Shown: positions 4,790 through 16,072 of the stretch, piece by piece | Layout: every line of letters begins with the position of its first letter | How positions within the stretch are numbered: position 1 is the first letter of the stretch | Source: Cereibacter sphaeroides 2.4.1 | GTDB taxonomy: Bacteria; Pseudomonadota; Alphaproteobacteria; Rhodobacterales; Rhodobacteraceae | DNA length: 32,000 bases | Assembly: GCF_000012905.2 (NCBI RefSeq) | Contig: NC_007493.2 | Coordinates: forward strand, 210,001 to 242,000 | Reading direction: 5' to 3' | The notes under the pieces: model-generated | What the model saw: only the letters and a program-made list of their open reading frames with translations | What the model was told of the DNA's origin: nothing | Database searches by the model: none | Position numbers and translations under genes: made by a program

Positions 4790-5059
4790 CGGGCGCCCTC
4801 GCGGGGCCGCCTGATCCGCATGGCCCCGGCCCGGGCGATGATCGTCTTCGAGGTGAACCCGGCGCCCCTCGCCATCGCACTCGAACCGATGGCGCCCGAT
4901 GGGTCGATCCGACGCGATCGCTCGCGGTTTGCCCAGGTCCAGGGCCTTGCACACATCGGCCGCGGCGAACCACGGGTTGCCCTCGATCTCGACCACCCGC
5001 ACCGGATGGTCCTTGAAGTCGAACAGCGAGGGATTGAGCGGAGGCGTGGCTGGAGGTGG
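4790..5059 (-). pseudogene. Bro-N domain (phage antirepressor-type) remnant, frameshifted and 3'-truncated
   Basis: Minus strand reads LFDFKDHPVRVVEIEGNPWFAAADVCKALDLGK (5040->4920). After a frame change it reads KTIIARAGAMRIRRPREGARF, which parallels VMLISESGLNKLVMRPDKPEAKKF of the neighbouring intact copy. No ATG start. Similarity ends at ~4788, exactly at the DUF1850 stop. Confidence 0.55.
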
Positions 5060-5515
5060 TCAACAAGGCGCTCCTGAAGGGGCCCAGCGGGGGGTGACCT
5101 TCAGTTGTTTCCGATTCAACTGAAGGTCATCAGGCGGCGGGTCTTCGTTCAATCTGGTTAAAACAGAGGTATCTCCCTCGATCGGACCAACGCCCCCCGG
5201 CATCGTGTAGGTGCCCGTCTTGCGGATGCTCGGGAGAACCTCGCGGGTGACCCAATCTTGAAACTTCTTCGCCTCAGGTTTGTCCGGGCGCATGACCAGC
5301 TTGTTGAGGCCGCTTTCGCTGATGAGCATGACTTCCCGCGCGCCAGAACGGGAGACAACCTTCACTTGTATCCGATACAACTGAGCTTCATCGGAGGCCA
5401 ACTTGCGGGCCGCAACCGAAACGTTGGGCGTTTGGGTGCGGGGGCCGAGGTTGTAGCCGAGGGCGATCAGAACATCCCGCAGGATGAACCACGGGTTCCC
5501 CTCGAGCATCACCAC
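5060..5515 (-). CDS. Bro-N domain protein (prophage antirepressor family)
   Basis: GTG start. Motifs LEGNPWFILRDVLIALGY ... ISESGLNKLVMRPDKPEAKKFQDWVTREVLPSIRKTGTY match the Bro-N pattern. GC is lower than the flanks. The C-terminal 40 aa are of doubtful coding value because they contain a 31-nt palindrome. Confidence 0.65.
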   Translation of the reverse strand: MVMLEGNPWFILRDVLIALGYNLGPRTQTPNVSVAARKLASDEAQLYRIQVKVVSRSGAREVMLISESGLNKLVMRPDKPEAKKFQDWVTREVLPSIRKTGTYTMPGGVGPIEGDTSVLTRLNEDPPPDDLQLNRKQLKVTPRWAPSGAPC

Positions 5516-5727
5516 ACGGAGCGCGTGGGAGCCGAAGTGTAAGGTGGCCGTCTAGGGCTTCTCGGTGGCGGCTGCGGGCTGCACCGCGGCGGGAGCCGGG
5601 AGGGCCTTCGGGGGGGCGGTGGGCGGGCGTGACGGCGGCAACAATGGTCTGAAGCATTGGTCCGAGGCAATCAGACCCTATCCCCTAACCCTCGGAAACA
5701 TAGGAAAAATCGGTCTGTAGGAGGGAG

Positions 5728-5817
5728 TGGCGGAGACGAAGGGATTCGAACCCTCGAGACGGTTTCCCGCCTGCACCCTTAGCAGGGGTGTGCCTTCGAC
5801 CACTCGGCCACGTCTCC
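5728..5817 (-). tRNA. tRNA-Ser (anticodon GCU), type II with long variable arm, CCA encoded
   Basis: Reverse complement GGAGACGTGGCCGAGTGGTCGAAGGCACACCCCTGCTAAGGGTGCAGGCGGGAAACCGTCTCGAGGGTTCGAATCCCTTCGTCTCCGCCA. It has a 7-bp acceptor stem, anticodon loop CT-GCT-AA, a GGTTCGAATCC T-loop and a long extra arm. Confidence 0.93.
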
Positions 5818-6032
5818 GCCGACCCGTATAGGGGGCAAGGTTACGGAAAACAAGCGTCTTGTTGAGAGCCTGGGACCGCAGGCGCGTCGGCTCGCCTCGT
5901 CTGGATCTGGAGGTGCATCAGCGCAGAATCAGCAGTTGCCAGAGCGCGTTTTGACGGTCGCAGCCCGCGGCTCTTCTGACCGACAAGGCGGGCACCCTCT
6001 CAGATGTCGTCGTGGAATAAGCTGGGCGTCAG

Positions 6033-6230
6033 GTGCGCTCGATCCGCATTGGCTTCGTGACTGCCGTTCAGCATGCCGGCCTGACCCATGCCACCTCCCT
6101 TGTGCTGGGGCATACAGAAGCCGTTCACAATGAACGCAGCAGGCATCCCGATGCAAAGATCGCCAAGTTTCTCGGTTACTCAAGCTCGGCCATAACCGGG
6201 CGGACCTATGCCCGACGCTCGCCGAGCACC
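6033..6230 (+). pseudogene. Possible tyrosine-recombinase (integrase) C-terminal remnant
   Basis: AGLTHATSLVLGH...DAKIAKFLGYSSSAITGRTYARR resembles the box II region (HxLRHT...LGHSSxxxTxxY) of phage integrases. No intact upstream catalytic domain is present. Confidence 0.3.
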
Positions 6231-6364
6231 GGACCGATGGGAAGCACCCGGTTGTGGCCGCCTTCTGAGGCTTTGGTTCTTCGTCTGGCCAGCTGTCGTG
6301 ACTGACATCGTCTGTGGCGGATGGTGTTATGCGGCAAGAGAGTCTGGCGGGCATCAAGCGGTGA

Positions 6365-6690
6365 CGTCGCTGGTCGGATGCGGAGAAGCGGTCGATCCTG
6401 GCGGAGGTTGGTGTGAATGGGGCGTGGGTTGCAGATGTCGCCCGTCGTCATGACCTGACCCGGCAGCACATCTACCAGTGGCGGGCCGAGTTCCGGCGGC
6501 GGGGCGAAAGCCTGACGGAGGAGACCGGGTTCCTGCCGGTCGAGACGACATCCGAGAACTGCGTCCCGTCGGTTCCCGCGGCGACCATACCGGTCGAGGT
6601 CGTGCTCGTGAACGGCTGACGCCTGCGCGGGATCGAGGGTCTGTCGCCGGCCGCCTCGCGCAACTGATCCGTTTGCTGGAAGGCGCATGA
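6365..6690 (+). pseudogene. IS66-family accessory gene tnpA, disrupted (N-terminal stop and internal frameshift)
   Basis: RRWSDAEKRSILAEVGVNGAWVADVARRHDLTRQHIYQWRAEF is the typical IS66 TnpA HTH. A TGA sits directly upstream at 6362. The C-terminal LAQLIRLLEGA* is in another frame and ends in ATGA overlapping the tnpB start. Confidence 0.7.
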
Positions 6691-6749
6691 TCGGGCCTAG
6701 GAATGGCATGCGCGTGTTCCTCGCGGCAGGCACCTCGGACAGACCCTGA
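6687..6749 (+). pseudogene. IS66-family tnpB, N-terminal 20 codons only
   Basis: MIGPRNGMRVFLAAGTSD matches the conserved TnpB N-terminus (MIxxPxGxRVxLAxGxTD). It is then truncated at the junction with the IS5-type fragment. Confidence 0.55.
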
Positions 6750-7033
6750 TCAGCGGCACTCGCCGCGGGCTGACCCCGGCGCTGGCGAAGGCGCTCCGGC
6801 GGCGCAGCAGCATCGAGCCCGAGATCGGCCACATGAAGACCGACGGACGGCTCGTGCGCTGCTTTCTGAAAGGTGCACTCGGCGATGCGCTTTTCGCCGT
6901 CCTCTGCGGCTGCGGCCACAACATCCGCAAGATCCTCGCTCATCAACGGAGGCTTCTTGGAGCCGTCATCTCTATCGTCCTGGCGGTGCTCCGGAAGCAG
7001 CGAACCCAAGGTCACGGTCTTGCCGCGGCTTGA
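6740..7033 (+). pseudogene. IS5/IS1182-family DDE transposase, C-terminal fragment
   Basis: ISGTRRGLTPALAKALRRRSSIEPEIGHMKTDGRLVRCFLKGALGDALFAVLCGCGHNIRKIL is the conserved C-terminal signature of this family (RRRSxIEPxIGHxK...LKGxxGD). There is no N-terminal part. Confidence 0.7.
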
Positions 7034-7838
7034 TCGCGTTGTTCAGGCTGAACGAAGTAAGCCCTAAGAAGTCCTTGAATTTTAACGTATGTGATTGATC
7101 AACATAAGTGATTGATCCGTGTGGTGACCCCGGCAGGACCTCTGCAACCGCTGATTTTGCGGAGAAATTTCGGTAAATGGGTCTCCTCTAGCCCTGTGGG
7201 AGATCAATGACTTAAGGGGCGGGCTGTAAACGCCGGCTGGCCGCGGAGGCGCTGCGGCTTCGTCTGTTCCCCGTCCGCGCGTGCGCGCCGCTTGCCGGTC
7301 TTTCACCTCAGCCATATCCACTGGACTTCCAGATGGGTTGATCGGTCGCGGGAGGAGAAGACCCGCCTGTCCCAAGAGGTGCGTGCGCGCGAGAAGTGGA
7401 TCCGAGGTATTCCTCGGCACGCTTCAATATCGGGGGCGCACGCGAGCCGATCTGCCGGACGGCTGTTCCGGGCAGTTCGACTGGTCCTTCTACCGCTGGA
7501 TCAAAACACGCGGATCGCCAACCAAGCTCAGATCAAACGGCTTGTGGCTGGTGCGTCGAACGACAAGGTCATCTTCCGGCTGCGGAGCGCGAGCGAGGTC
7601 AGGATGTTCTTGGCGCGACTTGCTTTGAACTCAAGCACGCCCTCGTCCTGCCTGGAGCGCCCCTCGCGCTGAGGCGGTGAAGGTCTGAACCCAGGCCTTA
7701 TCAGCCCCTCGTAGTCAGCCCCAGGCCGACCTGCATGCCGAGGCGCGGAGGTACGAGATCAGCCCGAACCTGCCCATCACTATCATAGCGACTCGATGTC
7801 AAGCGCGCACGCGGTCCTGTACAGGCCGGTTCGGCCCC

Positions 7839-7868
7839 TTGAGAATCAAGCGGCTTCAAGACTACATA
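7839..7868 (+). promoter_or_regulatory. Putative sigma-70 promoter of the HD/NTase operon
   Basis: TTGAGA (7839-7844), 18-nt spacer, TACATA (7863-7868), ~48 nt upstream of the ATG at 7916. Confidence 0.25.
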
Positions 7869-7915
7869 AACAGTCTGAGACCTTCGGTGCTACATTATGT
7901 TGAGGTGCCTTGCAG

Positions 7916-9379
7916 ATGTCCGAGAGGAAGCCTACCCTGTGGTCGGAGAGTCGCCGTCCGCGTAAAGGTGAAGAAGAGGCTGGTGGCACTGAAGCTTCAG
8001 CTACCATTGATGAAGGCGACAAGCTTTCTTGGCGTTCTGTCTTCCAACGGGACTACGATCGACTTCTCTTCTCGACCCCGGTTCGCCGACTGTCTGACAA
8101 GACGCAGGTATGGCCGATGGACGAGAACGATGGCGTCCGTACGCGCCTGACCCACTCCCACGAAGTAGCTAACCTCGCCCGCTCCTTGGGGTCGAGGATT
8201 GCAACGCAGGAAGAGGGGTTGTTCAACGCTGACCTCCATCGCACGATTCAGCCAATTTTGTGGGCTATTGGCTTGGCGCACGACCTTGGGAACCCTCCGT
8301 TCGGGCACCAAGGTGAGGCTGCCATGGGGCGTTGGTTCAAGGATCGCGAAGCTTGGATATTCACACACGCTTCTGAAGAAGATGAAAAAGGTTTTGCTGA
8401 GCCGATACCTGAGAAACAGAGATTGGAGTTCACCAAGTTTGACGGAAACCCGCAAACTTTAAGACTTGTGACCCGGTTGCAAACTCATGCCCATGGCTTG
8501 GGCTTGGACCTCTCGGCAGCAACGCTCGCTGCCATGCTCAAATATCCTGTTTCTGCGGAGAACCGGAACAAGGACGTGCCTGCGCACAAGAAGGTTGGCT
8601 ACTTTGAAACCGAAAGAGATATTGTAAACTGGATTCGAGATGAGACAGGACTGAAGGAAGGGCAGCGACACCCTCTTACTTGGATCATGGAAGCGTGCGA
8701 CGATGTCGCTTACAGCATCTTGGATGTAGATGATGTGATGAAAAAAGGCATTGCCTCGCCTGAAGACATTCTGTCTCAGATGGGTGCCGAAGATCGTCTT
8801 AAAGATCATGCTTGCGTTGCGAAGATCAGAGAAGCTTTCAGGCGCGTGGATGAAGCAAAACACGGTGTGTTTGTGGCGCGCGATATCAAGATTGGTTACA
8901 TGAGGGCCTATTTGATGGAGGCGCTACTCGACGAAGCGGCTGCCAGCTTCATCGACAACGCAGCTGCCATTTTCGCTTTTGAAGGTGGGATGCTGCCAAT
9001 ATTGGAGGAGAGCGTCTTGTGCAATTTCCTCAAATCGGTTGCAAAGGATCACGCATTCTCCAATCCGGGAGTTTTGAAGTCGGAAGCAGTCGGCGCAGAA
9101 GCAATATCTCATATCATGTCCTTCTTCTGGGCTTCCATTAGAGATCGGGAGCACAATGACGACATCAAGTCGTGTCGCATGACCGCGGCATCAAAGTTTG
9201 CTTGGTCACTGGTAAGTCCGAACTACATCGAAGAGGCAGCGCGCTGCATTACAAAGCAGACGCCCCCGCAGCGGATCCGGTATGCTGAGATGCGCCTGCT
9301 TACTGACATGGTGTCTGGCATGACAGATTCTTTCGCAATGAAGCTCTGGGGTGACATTCGGGCGTTGCCGAAATGCTGA
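7916..9379 (+). CDS. dGTPase-family (Dgt-like) HD-domain deoxynucleoside triphosphate triphosphohydrolase
   Basis: ATG 7916 with GAGGTG 8 nt upstream (the track ORF starts at TTG 7910). Motifs FQRDYDRLLFSTPVRRLSDKTQV, RTRLTHSHEVANLARSLG, GLAHDLGNPPFGHQGE, ACDDVAYSILDVDD. Confidence 0.85.
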   Translation: MSERKPTLWSESRRPRKGEEEAGGTEASATIDEGDKLSWRSVFQRDYDRLLFSTPVRRLSDKTQVWPMDENDGVRTRLTHSHEVANLARSLGSRIATQEEGLFNADLHRTIQPILWAIGLAHDLGNPPFGHQGEAAMGRWFKDREAWIFTHASEEDEKGFAEPIPEKQRLEFTKFDGNPQTLRLVTRLQTHAHGLGLDLSAATLAAMLKYPVSAENRNKDVPAHKKVGYFETERDIVNWIRDETGLKEGQRHPLTWIMEACDDVAYSILDVDDVMKKGIASPEDILSQMGAEDRLKDHACVAKIREAFRRVDEAKHGVFVARDIKIGYMRAYLMEALLDEAAASFIDNAAAIFAFEGGMLPILEESVLCNFLKSVAKDHAFSNPGVLKSEAVGAEAISHIMSFFWASIRDREHNDDIKSCRMTAASKFAWSLVSPNYIEEAARCITKQTPPQRIRYAEMRLLTDMVSGMTDSFAMKLWGDIRALPKC

Positions 9380-10209
9380 TCGCTCGAGATGAAAGGATCC
9401 TCAAACGCAGAGTGGACGATTATCTATGGCGAGATAGGTCGAAGACTGTGCTGGCGCTTCGGCAGGTGCTAGTTGAAAAGTTTGGAGATTTCGAAAAAGT
9501 ATCGATTTTTGGCGGCATGATCCGCGACATCGCGCGCAATGGAAAGCGTGGATTTCGATCAGACGTTGATCTTGTTATTGACGCACCCGCTGCTGAGGTG
9601 AAGGACTTGGCTGACAGGTTGGCAGCAAAGCCGAACTTATTTGGCGGATTTGGGTACCGTACTGCGCGTTGGGAAATCGACTTTTGGGCTCTCGAGACCT
9701 CTTGGGCGCATAAGCATGGTCACATTAACGCCTCCTCTGTTGATGATCTGATGGAAGGGACATTCTTCGACTGGGATGCTGCGCATTATGATCTTAAGAG
9801 CCGTAAGCTTTACTTTCAGTCGGGATATTTGGAGAGGATCCGCAGCAGAACACTTGGCGTCAATCTTGTTGAAACGCCAAGTGCTGTGGGCAACGCCGTG
9901 CGCGCAGTGAGGCGTGTGTTGCTCTGGGATCTAAGAGCTTCTCCATGTCTTCTGGATTTCGTTGAGCATGTGGTGTCTAACGAGGGACTAGAGACGCTTT
10001 CGCGCTATGAAAAGCGAAAGCACCAAAGGTCCGTGTGCGAAGCTTACGTCGAGAGAAGCAGGTTGCTCGAAGCCCTTGCTGCAGGCAACAATAAAGTATA
10101 CTTTCTTCGCGGATCGCCAAGGCAGCTGGAGTTGCCGGGGATTTTCCTCTCCTCCACTCCGCGAGGATTAGCTAACAATTCGGAGCATCGGGCGAGTGCC
10201 CGCCTCTGA
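9373..10209 (+). CDS. Truncated CCA-adding/poly(A)-polymerase-family (Pol-beta fold) nucleotidyltransferase, head and neck only
   Basis: Start overlaps the upstream stop (ATGCTGA). IFGGMIRDIA...SDVDLVID matches GGxxRD...DxD. FFDWDAAHYDL and GNAVRAVRRV align with the RDFTxNA and DPLRxLRAxRF motifs. At 278 aa there are no body or tail domains. Confidence 0.65.
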   Translation: MLIARDERILKRRVDDYLWRDRSKTVLALRQVLVEKFGDFEKVSIFGGMIRDIARNGKRGFRSDVDLVIDAPAAEVKDLADRLAAKPNLFGGFGYRTARWEIDFWALETSWAHKHGHINASSVDDLMEGTFFDWDAAHYDLKSRKLYFQSGYLERIRSRTLGVNLVETPSAVGNAVRAVRRVLLWDLRASPCLLDFVEHVVSNEGLETLSRYEKRKHQRSVCEAYVERSRLLEALAAGNNKVYFLRGSPRQLELPGIFLSSTPRGLANNSEHRASARL

Positions 10210-11244
10210 GGCATAAGGATAAAAGCGGTCAAACTCTTCACTATAGATTTGCGTTATCGACTTTATATCTTCGCCGCTTAATCCGAGCTCTTGCCGCATG
10301 GCTTTAATGATGGTTGGTAGAACCGTTGGTCGATCATGCTCGAAGTCAAGGTTTGCCGGCTCTCTTGTCTTCCATCCGCGCGTGGCGATTTGCTGCCAGA
10401 GATATCGCGCCTGATTTGGCGTAATAATCTTCTCGCGCTGGATGGCGTAAAGAATGCCTTGCATTGAAACTCGCCATTCGGGTTTCAGTGCTGCTAGGAG
10501 CGCCAATGTAACCTTCCTTCCGCGAAGCGCGTCGTTAAGTTCTTTTCTCGGCAAAAGAAAGTTCGACGCAAAGAGGTTTGCTTCCTCTTCCATGTTTGGT
10601 GTCGGGAACCTGTGCATCACCAAGTGCCCTAGCTCGTGAGCAAGGGTGAAACGTACACGATCCGCCGGATGCGAAGGGTTAAGTAGGACGAGGGGTGGTC
10701 GTCCAGGTACGGCAAAAGTAACACCACTGACATTGGCGCCCCCGAAGTCAGAGTAGCCGACGACTACACCTGCTCGCTCGACAAGTCTGGTCAAGTTCTT
10801 GATTGGTCCCGATGGAATTTTCCAATGTCGCCGCAGTAGATCTGCAATATCCGCTGGAGAGCCGTATTGCTCCAGGTCGAAACGTCGGAGATCTAGAGAT
10901 GGCTTTAAGTCCATTTCCTCTAGGAAGCGGCGCAGATTAAACATGCGAACATTAAGCTCCGCCGTGATCATATCCAATTCGCGCGCAGTTACGTCAGAAT
11001 GCCCCCGCAGCATTGGATGAATGCTGACGGGCGGCCCGTAAACTGTATCGGGAAGGTCGAAGAATCCAGGAGGAAGATTAAAGGCTCTTGATGCCACCCG
11101 TATGCACTCATCGTCAACTTCGACAAGATCATTTTCCATACGAGAATATACGGCCTGAGCAACGCCTAGTTGCTCCGCCGTCTTTTTCTGCGTAAGTCCT
11201 CTGAGATGCCGCGCCAATCGCAGCATGTTTCCACGAGTAGCCAT
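10168..11244 (-). CDS. XRE-family HTH fused to an ImmA/IrrE (COG2856) zinc metallopeptidase
   Basis: N-terminal LRLARHLRGLTQKKTAEQLGVAQAVYSRMEND (HTH_3-like). Central RFTLAHELGHLVMH (HEXXH) followed by EEEANLFASNFLLP. 358 aa. Start lies 3 nt after the upstream stop. Confidence 0.8.
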   Translation of the reverse strand: MATRGNMLRLARHLRGLTQKKTAEQLGVAQAVYSRMENDLVEVDDECIRVASRAFNLPPGFFDLPDTVYGPPVSIHPMLRGHSDVTARELDMITAELNVRMFNLRRFLEEMDLKPSLDLRRFDLEQYGSPADIADLLRRHWKIPSGPIKNLTRLVERAGVVVGYSDFGGANVSGVTFAVPGRPPLVLLNPSHPADRVRFTLAHELGHLVMHRFPTPNMEEEANLFASNFLLPRKELNDALRGRKVTLALLAALKPEWRVSMQGILYAIQREKIITPNQARYLWQQIATRGWKTREPANLDFEHDRPTVLPTIIKAMRQELGLSGEDIKSITQIYSEEFDRFYPYASEAGTRPMLRIVS

Positions 11245-11247
11245 TAC

Positions 11248-11892
11248 TTAGTTGCCGTTGCTGTCAGAGGTGTCGTCGTCGCGCTGACGTTTGCGGAGAA
11301 CAACTAGTTCTTCGCTTGCTTCAGCCGCATCTTCCAGCGGCTCGGTCGACATCGGGAGGAGAGTAATGCCAGTGCCACTAGACGTGCTAGCAGCGCTCGG
11401 GACAATCTCATAGTGCCAAAGTAGCTCGTCACCGTCACGTGCTGCAACAACAACCCGCTCTATGCGGTCCTCGATCTCATTAGCGGTATAGAGCACTTCC
11501 ACCTTGGTGGCACTGGGAGGCATGCCCGGCAACTCGCTTTGAATGCTCACAAAATCCAAGACTGCTTGCGTGGGGTGATTGCGGCCCAGATTGTCTTCAT
11601 CACCCTTTTTAAACCGCGCTAGCACCACGTCCTTGAAGCAAAACTTTACTGTCTGCGCATTGGGATAAACCCGCACCTCTGGATCGGCGCTGAATTCGGT
11701 AATGGCATGTCGAGCGATAGCGTCAAAGACGTAGTTAGCGGTCGTTCGCGGATAAAGAACTGGCCCAGTACCACTCGATGCCATGCTGCGCTTAATAGAT
11801 GCCCACTCGCCGTAACCTTGCTCTATGACGCGCAGGATACGATCATGGTACGGGTTCAAGTGCTCCCTAACCTCATCTTCACCGTACTGCAC
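11248..11892 (-). CDS. Hypothetical protein (214 aa), first gene of the ImmA-fusion operon; acidic, serine-rich C-terminal tail
   Basis: GTG start with AGGAAG 6 nt upstream and a near-consensus promoter further upstream. No motif I can recognise. Same low-GC composition as its partner. Confidence 0.6.
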   Translation of the reverse strand: MQYGEDEVREHLNPYHDRILRVIEQGYGEWASIKRSMASSGTGPVLYPRTTANYVFDAIARHAITEFSADPEVRVYPNAQTVKFCFKDVVLARFKKGDEDNLGRNHPTQAVLDFVSIQSELPGMPPSATKVEVLYTANEIEDRIERVVVAARDGDELLWHYEIVPSAASTSSGTGITLLPMSTEPLEDAAEASEELVVLRKRQRDDDTSDSNGN

Positions 11893-11924
11893 GTGCTTCT
11901 TCCTATTACTGATGGATCTAGGTC

Positions 11925-11953
11925 ATCATAGGTGCCGCGTTTTGCAAATTCAA
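11925..11953 (-). promoter_or_regulatory. Near-consensus sigma-70 promoter driving the 214-aa/ImmA operon
   Basis: On the minus strand: TTGAAT, 17-nt spacer, TATGAT. The -10 element ends ~32 nt upstream of the GTG at 11892. Confidence 0.5.
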
Positions 11954-12073
11954 GATAAATTATTCAGTTCGTATTCTGACGCGTCCGGCTTGGGAGCTAC
12001 GCAAGCCAGATGAGACGTGCTGCTGTACCGAGCGTCACGTCCGCAACATGTGCATGGCGGTCCTAGGGGCGTG

Positions 12074-12094
12074 GCCCGTGACAGCACCACGGGC
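12074..12094 (-). terminator. Hairpin just downstream of the last prophage gene (weak terminator candidate, no U-tract)
   Basis: GCCCGTG-acagcac-CACGGGC, 12 nt beyond the stop at 12106. Confidence 0.25.
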
Positions 12095-12105
12095 ACGCGC
12101 CATGC

Positions 12106-12588
12106 TCAGAACTCAGCCGCCTGGGCAAGCCTGGACCGGACCAGCACATCGAGCGTGTCCGCCGGCGGGGCCAGCTGCTGCAACGCATCCGGTACAGAGT
12201 TCCGGACATAGCTCGAAACAAACTGGGTCGCCGCATCAGGGGCAAGCTTCCGGGCTACCGCCACCCGCGCGGCGGTCATGATCGCCGAATGCAGCGCCTC
12301 GCGATGCCGTGCCTCGATCTGGATCCCGGTCCAACGCTGGAAGCGGACGGTCGCGAGCCCGATCAGCGCCGTCAGGATCACGCCCGCCAGATCTAGGAGG
12401 CTGGGCGTCAGCGCGGTCAGAAGGTCGCTGCCGGTCGAGGCAGCTGCGGGCACGGCGAGCGCGGCGAGGATCGAGGCCGAGATCGTCGAAGCGGCCAGCC
12501 GCGCCAGAGCAGCGACCAGCGGCCAGCCGATGAGCAATATGAAGGCGAACGCGCAGAGGGCGAGGGCAAGGATGAAGATCAGGGACAT
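12106..12588 (-). CDS. Membrane protein downstream of the endolysin (possible holin or lysis accessory protein)
   Basis: AGGAGA RBS 5 nt upstream. N-terminal half has ~3 hydrophobic helices (SLIFILALALCAFAFILLIGWPLVAAL...). C-terminal half is soluble. Confidence 0.6.
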   Translation of the reverse strand: MSLIFILALALCAFAFILLIGWPLVAALARLAASTISASILAALAVPAAASTGSDLLTALTPSLLDLAGVILTALIGLATVRFQRWTGIQIEARHREALHSAIMTAARVAVARKLAPDAATQFVSSYVRNSVPDALQQLAPPADTLDVLVRSRLAQAAEF

Positions 12589-12600
12589 GGGTTCTCTCCT

Positions 12601-13410
12601 TCAGAGGCGGGCGAACTGGAAGTGCATCCAGTCGCGGTTGCAGGCGCGGCCGAGGCTCGTGGCGCCGGCGGCTTCGACGATGGTCCAGAAGGGCTCATAG
12701 GCGGGTGCGGCGAAGCTCGCCCGGTCGCGGCCCCAGCGGAGCGGGTTGCGCTCGGGGTCGAGGTCCACGGCGATGCCCCAGGCATGCATCGAGAGGGCGG
12801 AGCCGCCGCGCATGGGCCGGTGGTTGAAGCAGCCGCCGAAGAGGTTCAGCCGCAGCCGCTCGAACTGGACGGCGCCGTAGTGCGCCACCGCCTCGCGGAA
12901 GATCCGCGCCATCGGTGCGACCACGAGCTTGTGGCAGCGGAAGCTCGTGATGCTCGTGCCGGGATCCCAGGCGAGGCGGAACGGGATCGGCAGCTCGACG
13001 ATCCCCGCGGTGCAGTCGGGGCCGCCCGCGACGCCGTAGAAGGTCGCGACAGACTCCTGCCGCGGATAGGCGCCCTGGGCATCGGCCACGCCATGGCCCG
13101 GCAGCGGCAGCCGCTCGACGGTCGCTCGCACCGGCCCGGAGGCCCAGGCGGTCAGCGCCTCGCGGGTGTTGGGCCCGAGGAGCCCGTCGATCCGGCCCGG
13201 CGCATGGCCGAGCCGCGCCAGCACCGCCTGGCCGGCCGCGATCCGCTGCCGGCGGAAAGGCCAGGTGCGCCAGGGCACCGCCTCTCCCTCGAGCGCCGCC
13301 TGTGCGGCCGCCTGGGTCAGCGGCCCCGCGTCGCCGTCGATGGCGCCGCGGTAGAGCTCCGCGGCTGCGAGCAGCCGCTGGATGTCGGATGTCGTCACGT
13401 CTTTCTCCAT
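12601..13410 (-). CDS. Endolysin: peptidoglycan-binding repeats plus M15-family peptidase
   Basis: Two PG_binding-like segments (LYRGAIDGDAGPLTQAA; GHAPGRIDGLLGPNTREAL). The C-terminus has SMHAWGIAVDLD ... NRDWMHFQ, typical M15 zinc ligands. The ATG at 13410 is preferred over the track TTG at 13416 because a terminator hairpin abuts it. Confidence 0.8.
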   Translation of the reverse strand: MEKDVTTSDIQRLLAAAELYRGAIDGDAGPLTQAAAQAALEGEAVPWRTWPFRRQRIAAGQAVLARLGHAPGRIDGLLGPNTREALTAWASGPVRATVERLPLPGHGVADAQGAYPRQESVATFYGVAGGPDCTAGIVELPIPFRLAWDPGTSITSFRCHKLVVAPMARIFREAVAHYGAVQFERLRLNLFGGCFNHRPMRGGSALSMHAWGIAVDLDPERNPLRWGRDRASFAAPAYEPFWTIVEAAGATSLGRACNRDWMHFQFARL

Positions 13411-13414
13411 ATGC

Positions 13415-13438
13415 AAAAGCCCCGCACGAGGGCGGGGC
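13415..13438 (-). terminator. Rho-independent terminator after the methylase gene
   Basis: Minus strand GCCCCGC-cctcgt-GCGGGGC followed by TTTTG. Confidence 0.5.
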
Positions 13439-14671: not shown

Positions 14672-15670
14672 ATGGACCTCGATGATCTATACCGCCTTCT
14701 GCGTGTATCGCACGTGCAGGCTCAGGGCATCGTCGATACCATCCGGGACCCGCTGCTCGTCCTCGCAGGCGATCTGACGGTCATCAGCGCGAACCCGGCC
14801 TTCTACCGGACCTTTGCGACCGACCGGGACAGCACCATCGGCCGCCCGCTCTACGACCTCGGTAACGGCCAGTGGAACATTCCCGAACTGCGCATGCTGC
14901 TCGAGAACGTGATCCCGAAAAGCGCTTCTATCATGGATTTCGAGGTGCAGGCAGGATTTCCGGAGGTGGGCCTGCGGACCATGCTGATCAGCGCGCAACG
15001 CCTGATCCACCCGGACAATGGGCAGCGTGTCCTCCTCCTCTCGATGGTGGATGCGACGGCCCGGCGTCAGATGGAGGCCGCGAAGGACATCCTGATCAAC
15101 GAGCTCGATCACCGCATCAAGAACCTGATGTCGGTGACACAGGCTCTGACCCGACAGACGGCCGTCGAAGGCAGAAGTGCCGGCGAATATCGCACCGCGC
15201 TCCTCGGACGGTTCGATGCTCTGGCGCGATCACTCGAAGTGGCGTCGCACAAGCAGTCGTCGCAGCTGCGGGACCTGGCCGTCGCCGTGATGGAGCCATA
15301 TCTGGAGGCGGCATCCGCCGTTGTCATCGCGGAAGGGCCGGCCGTCCGGCTCTCCCCTTCGCAGGCCACCCCGCTTGGCCTCGTTCTTCACGAGCTGGGG
15401 ACGAATGCCACAAAGTACGGAGCCCTGTCCACGTCGAGTGGAACCGTGACACTGGACTGGAAGGTCGTCTCGGACGGGGAAGGCCGGAAAAAAGTGCATT
15501 TGCGATGGCAGGAACGAGGGGGGCCGAAGGTGGCGGCACCCTCGAAGACCGGCTTCGGCACCCGTCTCATCAAATTTACCACCGAATTCGAACTGCGAGG
15601 TTCCGCGGAACTTTCCTATGAGCCTGATGGTTTCGTGGCGAAGTTGAGCTTTCCGAGCCAGAACCCCTGA
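14672..15670 (+). CDS. Soluble PAS-domain HWE/HisKA_2-type histidine kinase
   Basis: AAGGAA RBS. PAS-like N-terminus (IRDPLLVLAGDLTVISANPAFYRTF). H-box ELDHRIKNLMSV. N-box HELGTNATKYGAL. WQERGGP...GFGTRLI. No transmembrane segment. Confidence 0.85.
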   Translation: MDLDDLYRLLRVSHVQAQGIVDTIRDPLLVLAGDLTVISANPAFYRTFATDRDSTIGRPLYDLGNGQWNIPELRMLLENVIPKSASIMDFEVQAGFPEVGLRTMLISAQRLIHPDNGQRVLLLSMVDATARRQMEAAKDILINELDHRIKNLMSVTQALTRQTAVEGRSAGEYRTALLGRFDALARSLEVASHKQSSQLRDLAVAVMEPYLEAASAVVIAEGPAVRLSPSQATPLGLVLHELGTNATKYGALSTSSGTVTLDWKVVSDGEGRKKVHLRWQERGGPKVAAPSKTGFGTRLIKFTTEFELRGSAELSYEPDGFVAKLSFPSQNP

Positions 15671-15682
15671 CCCGAGTATACC

Positions 15683-16072
15683 ATGCCGAACGAGCCGGCC
15701 GAGCCTCGTCCGAAGCAGGGCCTGCTCGTCCTTGTTGTCGAGGACGAATTCCTGACCGCCATCGACCTGCAGTCGATGCTGGAGGATGTGGGCTACGCCG
15801 TACTCGGGCCGGTTGGCACGGTTGATGACGCGCTCAGGATCCTGGACGAGACGCGCCCGGACGTGGTGTCGCTCGATCTAAACTTGCGAGGGCAATCCTC
15901 CATTCCGGTGGCCGAGAAACTCCGCGAGCTCGAGGTTCCGTTTATCGTCACTTCAGCCTACAGGACCTTCGACTTTCCCGGCGGCGAGATTCTGACTGGC
16001 GTCACAGCGATCGGGAAGCCCGTCCACCCGCGCATGCTGATCGAGGCCCTGAGCCAGGCGTGCGGATCATGA
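15683..16072 (+). CDS. Single-domain response regulator (receiver only)
   Basis: VLVVEDEFL, DVVSLDLNL (phospho-acceptor Asp region), FIVTSAY, GKP. 129 aa with no output domain. Confidence 0.8.
   Translation: MPNEPAEPRPKQGLLVLVVEDEFLTAIDLQSMLEDVGYAVLGPVGTVDDALRILDETRPDVVSLDLNLRGQSSIPVAEKLRELEVPFIVTSAYRTFDFPGGEILTGVTAIGKPVHPRMLIEALSQACGS

Follow-up and report, generated by a model that had tools for sequence, protein, structure and literature searches.

Clover is an anti-phage system that is composed of two proteins, CloA, a dGTP triphosphohydrolase (dGTPase), and CloB, a nucleotidyltransferase (NTase; Yamaguchi et al., bioRxiv 2025.07.09.663793, PMC12265719). On its own CloA is inactive, and dTTP activates its dGTPase; the p3diT made by CloB binds to a neighbouring pocket and suppresses this activation (PMC12265719). 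Active-site mutants of CloB are toxic, and in E. coli Clover protects more than 10,000-fold against T5-like phages; an alphaproteobacterial example is also presented, from Methylobacterium (PMC12265719). RosmerTA systems consist of a zinc-peptidase antitoxin plus a toxin whose function is unknown; these toxins show no relationship to one another, and the order of the two genes is not fixed, the toxin gene being first in 58% of cases (Millman et al., 2022; Ernits et al., 2023; 10.1101/2022.05.11.491447, PMC10440598). The subject of this report is an islet of low guanine-plus-cytosine (GC) content in Cereibacter sphaeroides 2.4.1, found within 32,000 nucleotides (nt) of contig NC_007493.2 (positions 210,001 to 242,000, hereafter the window, in which all coordinates are given). 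It is very likely that this islet, at about 7840-11976, is a mobile, phage-borne accessory cassette, in which two independent anti-phage modules, one of the Clover and one of the RosmerTA type, lie tail to tail.

The islet contains four open reading frames (ORFs) arranged in two convergent and tightly coupled pairs, just as the first-pass annotation of this DNA had described. Pair 1, on the + strand, consists of cloA (7916-9379, 487 aa) and cloB (9373-10209, 278 aa), which overlap by 7 nt. Pair 2, on the - strand, consists of a gene for a soluble 214-aa protein (11248-11892), the candidate RmrT-type toxin, and of an rmrA-like gene (10168-11244, 358 aa), with a gap of 3 nt between them; the 3' ends of cloB and the rmrA-like gene overlap by 42 nt, at 10168-10209. 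The same annotation named the gene families properly (dNTP hydrolase, Pol-beta NTase and ImmA/IrrE-XRE), and its view that the region was acquired horizontally and is a defence-type islet located at a prophage end is supported. Its view that neither pair corresponds to a named system is not supported, since pair 1 is identified by homology as Clover and pair 2 has the architecture of RosmerTA, with a PADLOC RmrA match at E 4e-52.

The drop in GC on which the islet had been recognised is real: the stretch 7861-11966 has 52.2% GC, as compared with a mean of 70.3% (standard deviation 2.1, minimum 65.9) in 93 other 4.1-kb windows, the mean of the whole stretch being 67%. At third codon positions GC reaches 0.51-0.58 in the four genes and 0.83-0.93 in the flanking ones. 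The edges had been placed at about 7040 and 12010, both of them sharp. The right edge is indeed abrupt at about 12000, where GC rises from 0.43 (11900-11999) to 0.67 (12000-12099), but the left one is stepped, from 0.634 (5001-7040) through 0.602 (7041-7860) to 0.52, and DNA homology to the copies of the cassette elsewhere starts only at 7836-7861 and stops at about 11966. Because of this step and this start of homology the islet extends over ~7840-11976, and its left end lies at about 7840-7860, some 800 bases further right than had been claimed. Between 7040 and 7860 no coding signal was detected, nor a Pfam signal in any ORF.

Pair 1 is identified as a Clover system on the basis of the PDB matches of CloA, its conserved residues, the full-length homology of CloB, and a gene order and overlap that are the same as in the Salmonella locus L060. 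The product of cloA, a protein with an HD domain, matches the PADLOC dGTPase model (E 3.4e-68) and passes the general TIGR01353 model (291 bits, cut-off 152). Its best matches in PDB are the eight-chain entries 9p8s-9p8v (E 8e-89 to 2e-85), followed by E. coli Dgt (4x9e, E 3e-45) and by the Shewanella SpdGTPase (9p8w, E 8e-24, residues 42-142 only). Entries 9p8s-9p8v are taken as CloA, because the published numbering of CloA residues fits 38 of the 39 residues named when it is laid on the 9p8s sequence, and because Salmonella P0241 lies beside a CloB homologue in L060. The data statement of PMC12265719 prints the CloA codes as 8P9S-8P9V; the matching PDB entries are 9P8S-9P8V, adjacent to 9P8W, and the printed codes are probably transposed. 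The identity to Salmonella CloA amounts to 43% over 427 aa.

All six catalytic residues (H82, H124, D125, D264, H133 and E136) are kept, with the HD motif and the HE dyad among the features shared with Clover. They are invariant, save for one gap at H69, in the 58 CloB-paired dGTPases examined, i.e., the window protein and 57 others extracted from the fetched loci. The dTTP pocket (R47, D61, Q172, K256, S418, N420, A444, T449, Y452) is identical at seven of nine positions. Its two changes are common in the family: Y452, here F, is F in 48 of the 58 proteins, and A444, a main-chain contact, here M, is M in 53. The pocket for p3diT (T25, R29, R34, D37, R38, F41, N75, N181, Q311, R314) is identical at seven of ten positions and keeps the three arginines R29, R34 and R38 as well as both contacts to the second thymine. 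Across the 58 proteins the dTTP pocket is nearly invariant, and the p3diT contacts R34 and Q311 vary, with Q and G equally common at position 311 among relatives.

The start of cloA is placed at the ATG at 7916 in preference to the TTG at 7910, as this ATG and its context are kept in an alignment of the upstream regions. It is preceded by a Shine-Dalgarno sequence GAGG (7902-7905, + strand) and by a promoter-like element at 7839-7868 on the same strand, with a -35-like TTGAGA (7839-7844), an 18-nt spacer and a -10-like TACATA (7863-7868). This putative promoter, defined by its match to the consensus, is conserved across the window and the loci L057, L056, L001, L059 and L117.

The second gene of pair 1, cloB, encodes the accessory NTase of the system. 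No family match was found for it in the scans of domain and defence libraries, but its homology to Salmonella CloB (L060:7370-8200, 277 aa) is clear both in direct comparison (31% identity, BLASTP E 6e-27) and with a family profile (hhalign probability 99.8% over 247 columns). The predicted catalytic carboxylates D64, D66 and D103, which correspond to the [DE]h[DE]...h[DE]h active site expected of CloB, are invariant in relatives, and D64 and D66, the DxD of Clover CloB, align with D71 and D73 of the Salmonella protein. Invariant in the relatives, all of which are annotated as hypothetical, are also the motifs GG[ML][IV]RD...SD[VI]DLV and TFFDWDA. The AlphaFold2 model (predicted local distance difference test, pLDDT, 86.5) finds its best Foldseek matches in class II CCA-/A-adding tRNA nucleotidyltransferases (E 1e-8), of which CloB covers only the head and neck regions; residues 242-278 show no conservation and have low model confidence. 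It is through this C-terminal extension of about 20-35 residues that cloB overlaps the 3' end of the rmrA-like gene by 42 nt, and relatives stop near ...PRQLELPG; the extension looks like a by-product of the joining of the two modules. When one genome per GTDB species was scanned for CloB relatives, 50 loci were obtained, from Alpha-, Beta- and Gammaproteobacteria and from one metagenome-assembled genome of Negativicutes, and every one of the 50 has a CloA-like gene immediately upstream, on the same strand.

The Salmonella enterica locus (L060:1-11245, JAMTVR010000004.1) carries Clover between two IS3-type transposases and a phage-type integrase. It adjoins there genes with PfkB/nucleoside 2-deoxyribosyltransferase, QueC, Ogg-HhH and D12 methyltransferase domains, which may form a DNA-modification cluster.

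Could pair 1 instead belong to the core genome and be housekeeping, a Dgt-like dGTPase next to an enzyme resembling tRNA nucleotidyltransferase? The general dGTPase model that CloA passes and the CCA-adding fold nearest to CloB would agree with it. However, the GC of the pair is 18 points under that of the host genome and the pair sits at a prophage end, its relatives occur in many unrelated contexts and in defence clusters, the dGTPase scores 312 bits where the housekeeping equivalog requires 439, and the NTase is a CloB homologue with head and neck only, so that this explanation is hardly credible. Such pairs show a foreign composition elsewhere too: in 45 of 46 genome loci Clover lies below the GC of its flanks (median difference -6 points), and the window locus shares with the described systems its accessory, low-GC and mobile character.

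Two further candidates were tried for pair 1 and rejected. Stand-alone anti-phage dGTPases (Tal et al., 2022; Shewanella SpdGTPase, 9P8W) share with CloA the HD dGTPase superfamily and the logic of dNTP depletion, but SpdGTPase is the product of a single gene and a constitutively active hexamer that has no NTase partner. The gene studied here is always paired with cloB, and it scores 185.6 bits against the cut-off of 400 of NF041026 (antiphage_dGTPase) and 151.5 against 383 of NF003701. A cyclic-oligonucleotide-based anti-phage signalling system (CBASS) with CapH/CapP was rejected since the NTase folds like class II CCA-adding enzymes and not like CD-NTases, its match to CdnD is poor (E 3e-3, TM 0.26) and the layout is convergent.

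By analogy with the characterised systems, the CloA of the window would remain inactive until the level of dTTP goes up, which happens when some phages remodel the dNTP pool. Once activated, it would deplete dGTP, and phage DNA replication would stop. CloB would synthesise the dinucleotide p3diT, which would bind to the neighbouring CloA pocket and raise the activation threshold, and in this way the uninfected cell would be protected.

The downstream gene of pair 2 encodes an XRE helix-turn-helix (HTH) domain fused to an M78 (ImmA/IrrE) zinc peptidase (Pfam HTH_3, E 1.1e-8; Peptidase_M78, E 4.2e-21) whose HELGH motif is intact. Of the PADLOC RmrA models, fourteen match it, the best one over residues 6-340, and it also belongs with phrog_2439 (E 4.7e-76). 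The use of PADLOC, which the first-pass annotation had proposed as a check, thus recovered the dGTPase and the RmrA-like protein and returned no match (E <= 0.1) for the 214-aa protein. The RmrA-like protein is a candidate antitoxin and autoregulator. Weaker similarity extends to CapP (PADLOC capP model, 7.6e-18; PDB 7t5t, 0.0034), and an XRE HTH together with an M78 protease near a defence or mobile-element operon is also known from CapH/CapP of CBASS and ImmR/ImmA of ICEBs1. In the window, though, both domains are fused in one protein, and the gene is convergent, not divergent, with Clover. Nor is the HTH-M78 protein a regulator of Clover, because its constant partner is the 214-aa gene and not the defence operon. 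The rmrA-like gene lies directly downstream of the 214-aa gene, at full length, in 48 of 48 testable metagenome loci (a locus counts as testable if its sequence continues for at least about 120 bases past the 214-aa gene), and the coupling recurs in six of six viral loci.

The 214-aa protein has a conserved core of about 165 aa and an acidic, disordered tail. It has no match in Pfam or NCBIfam, and its sole library match is phrog_15813 (function unknown, 2.9e-8). Its family is large: at least 1338 clusters (50% identity, E <= 1e-3) were counted in 1.84 billion representatives, and its members are all single-domain proteins of about 200 aa. No Pfam or PADLOC match was obtained for 62 divergent members, with 61 divergent relatives staying without a PADLOC match at E <= 0.01, and a profile search of PDB sequences returned nothing. 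The AlphaFold2 model (pLDDT 79, core > 90) consists of two long helices followed by a beta-alpha-beta unit and has no Foldseek match at E < 1e-3 in PDB or BFVD. Weak matches (E 0.01-0.5) to a tRNA-splicing endonuclease and to PD-(D/E)XK-type nucleases recur; a nuclease identity is not claimed, as the acidic catalytic signature is missing from the matching strands. The conserved residues are mostly basic (R48, R92, K94, K95, N104, T107 and R151, with an RFKK motif included).

Upstream of pair 2 a promoter/operator region is found at 11925-11976 on the - strand, with GAATA (11976-11972), TGAATA (11966-11961), a -35 TTGAAT (11953-11948) and a -10 TATGAT (11930-11925). The palindrome TTTGCAAA (11948-11941, - strand) overlaps the -35 element, and the two GAATA repeats lie upstream of it. 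A promoter scan found this promoter, with a regional match count not above chance. Its motifs are invariant in comparison with L057, L051, L062 and L063, whose proteins are 54-80% identical, and the TTTGCAAA region is likely the operator for the HTH domain of the RmrA-like protein. Autoregulation by this domain fits, because the motifs stay unchanged between loci with proteins only ~55% identical. Presumably the HTH-M78 protein would neutralise the 214-aa candidate toxin and repress the operon through TTTGCAAA, and infection would release the toxin.

Pair 2 thus resembles RosmerTA in being a two-gene operon with a small upstream gene and a downstream gene for an HTH plus ImmA/M78 zinc peptidase that matches RmrA models. 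Toxin-first is the commonest order, and phage-encoded examples are known (Gordonia phage Kita). It differs in that the 214-aa protein, unlike the RmrT of Kita, lacks a transmembrane segment, and in that pairs of the window type travel as cargo of IS1-family elements in other genomes. We classify pair 2, from its sequence, as a RosmerTA-type module, the defence role being the weaker part of this assignment because its neighbours are mostly housekeeping genes and carriage by IS1-family elements is frequent.

Such carriage is best seen where an IS1-family DDE transposase gene follows directly after the pair, in at least 12 loci, among them L062, L063, L065, L074, L087, L100, L104, L105, L108, L109 and L112. 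At L062:5428-8637 terminal inverted repeats of 21 nt (GGTAGTGTCTCAGTTTGAAAT) bound a unit made up of a small ORF, the pair and the transposase, and the whole appears to be a 3.2-kb insertion sequence with the toxin-antitoxin pair as its cargo; GGTAGTGTCTCAGTTTGAAAT was searched for in the window and is absent. The 214-aa family seems to spread both as cargo of IS1-family 'transporter' insertion sequences and with phages. We propose tentatively, and with rather less than even confidence, that the 214-aa protein defines a large undescribed family of soluble RosmerTA-type toxins.

Several points weigh against the reading of the islet as two anti-phage modules, on either side of the junction. In CloA, three p3diT contacts are changed (T25 to K, N181 to D and Q311 to G), and since it is Q311 that recognises the first thymine in the Salmonella protein, this locus could have another inhibitory ligand or another way of reading it; the octamer contact H263 is E here, which together with the Y452 to F change sets the window protein apart from the described CloA. 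In pair 2, the 214-aa protein matches neither a known RmrT model nor a known fold, so that its role as a toxin is presumed from its position in the operon. The missing RmrT match is compatible with the RosmerTA architecture because RmrT toxins are by definition mutually unrelated (PMC10440598). The neighbours of pair 2 in 18 long loci are mostly housekeeping, with few defence genes, and therefore guilt by association gives the pair no support for defence. The frequent IS1-family carriage would fit a plain addiction module equally well.

This last point makes a live alternative of the view that pair 2 is not anti-phage at all, and serves insertion sequences and phages as an addiction toxin-antitoxin or as an ImmR/ImmA-like switch. 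The transposase genes, the inverted repeats of L062 and the lack of defence-gene enrichment among the neighbours all suit it, and proteases of the ImmA type are known regulators of mobile elements (PMC10440598). Against it stand the full-length match of the HTH-M78 protein to RmrA models of validated RosmerTA defence systems, the known diversity of RosmerTA toxins, and the place of the window pair beside another defence system in an accessory slot of a phage. We regard it as possible though rather unlikely, and the two functions are not mutually exclusive. The anti-phage reading of pair 2 is preferred, with protection against phages as its expected outcome.

Do the four genes make up one system or two? 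The first-pass annotation had left both possibilities, a composite or two adjacent systems, and had proposed to ask whether the genes travel as a block. Within one lineage they do: the block of four recurs at 81.5% DNA identity on the IMG/VR phage contig L057 (the same contig as L121, assembled from three samples and represented also by L058 and L061), between an HNH gene and terminase/portal genes, and at 68-76% identity in a third context, L051-L053. When the cassette was searched at the DNA level, the phage collection yielded nothing, and a Rhizobium plasmid gave a single weak XRE match. Each pair is nevertheless far more often found alone. The second pair is absent within 10 kb of Clover from all 49 genome loci with sequence beyond cloB, and Clover is likewise alone on contigs L056, L059, L115, L117 and L119, relatives of 60-79% identity included. 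The contexts of these Clover-only contigs differ: L115 has it between TniQ and a type I restriction-modification system, L056 and L059 beside a Dcm/Z1/DUF4420/AIPR/Mrr cluster, and L117 by resolvases. Conversely, Clover is absent from 47 of the 48 testable metagenome loci that contain the second pair. Nor is the junction constant: the pairs overlap by 42 nt or by 8 nt, or stand 295 nt apart. Since each pair mostly occurs without the other and the junction is not fixed, the two pairs are independent modules that became neighbours.

A single composite system, in which the HTH-M78 and 214-aa proteins would regulate or back up Clover, could appeal to the intact block in at least three contexts (the window, the phage contig, and L051-L053, at 68-82% identity) and to the overlap of the 3' ends in two of the variants. 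It is contradicted by the separate occurrence of both pairs and by the variable junction, and characterised Clover systems function with two genes (PMC12265719), so that it is very improbable. A weaker and less likely thought is that the recurrent joining of the second pair to Clover reflects functional layering, e.g., one system guarding the other against phage inhibitors. Two adjacent modules remain the preferred description, and the position at the lysis end of a prophage and the joining to a RosmerTA-type pair also distinguish this Clover locus from those described.

Both pairs thus belong to known kinds (Clover, 2025; RosmerTA, 2022), and the only unexplored element is the family of the 214-aa partner. 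The general picture of defence islands is unchanged. What the locus adds is an alphaproteobacterial, prophage-borne Clover orthologue, in a strain that seems to be in wide laboratory and mock-community use. Its exact CloA protein is present in 126 blocks of public assemblies, and it offers a convenient second model for asking whether CloA also senses dTTP and is inhibited by p3diT outside the enterobacteria. The variable contacts R34 and Q311, next to a near-invariant dTTP pocket, may point to variation of the ligand. In addition, attention is drawn to a very large unannotated family of partners of RmrA-like proteins and to its IS1-type carriage; current defence-finding tools would overlook pair 2 or call only a part of it.

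The surroundings of the islet are largely as had been claimed, with a tRNA gene and remnants of mobile elements on the left and a prophage on the right. The tRNA-Ser(GCT) gene (5728-5817, - strand) is the only RNA family that an Rfam scan of the window detected. Between it and the islet lie a weak C-terminal integrase fragment (6033-6305, E 0.011) and an IS3-type HTH_Tnp_1 fragment (6413-6619), and the left flank contains non-coding DNA as well. A BRO-N anti-repressor-like gene (5060-5515, - strand) is located on the other side of tRNA-Ser from the prophage, where it adjoins host TRAP-transporter genes, and the tRNA gene has its 3' end towards it. At the GC step of about 7040-7130 there is an AT-rich stretch (7075-7130) with a tandem-like repeat of GTGATTGATC (tgtgattgatcaacataagtgattgatccgtg), which could be an old element end or the remnant of an attachment site; no partner for it was found within 5000-13000. 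A search for direct or inverted repeats flanking the cassette, such as attachment sites or insertion-sequence ends, gave only short pairs at chance level.

The right flank is occupied by the prophage, nearly all genes of which are on the - strand, in the order membrane protein (phrog_17576), endolysin (12601-13416, - strand), Dam methylase, tail fibre, tape measure, connector proteins, major head protein and head protease. A gene for an HWE histidine kinase with a PAS domain (14672-15670, + strand) lies within the prophage, between the Dam methylase and a holin gene; just downstream of it a response-regulator gene is placed at about 15683-16072 by reference to L129. GC is lower here (0.60-0.64), and the strand is opposite to that of the prophage genes. 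Because the related assembly WSNV01000001.1 (L134) carries a different gene after the methylase, this site is probably another variable cargo slot of the prophage.

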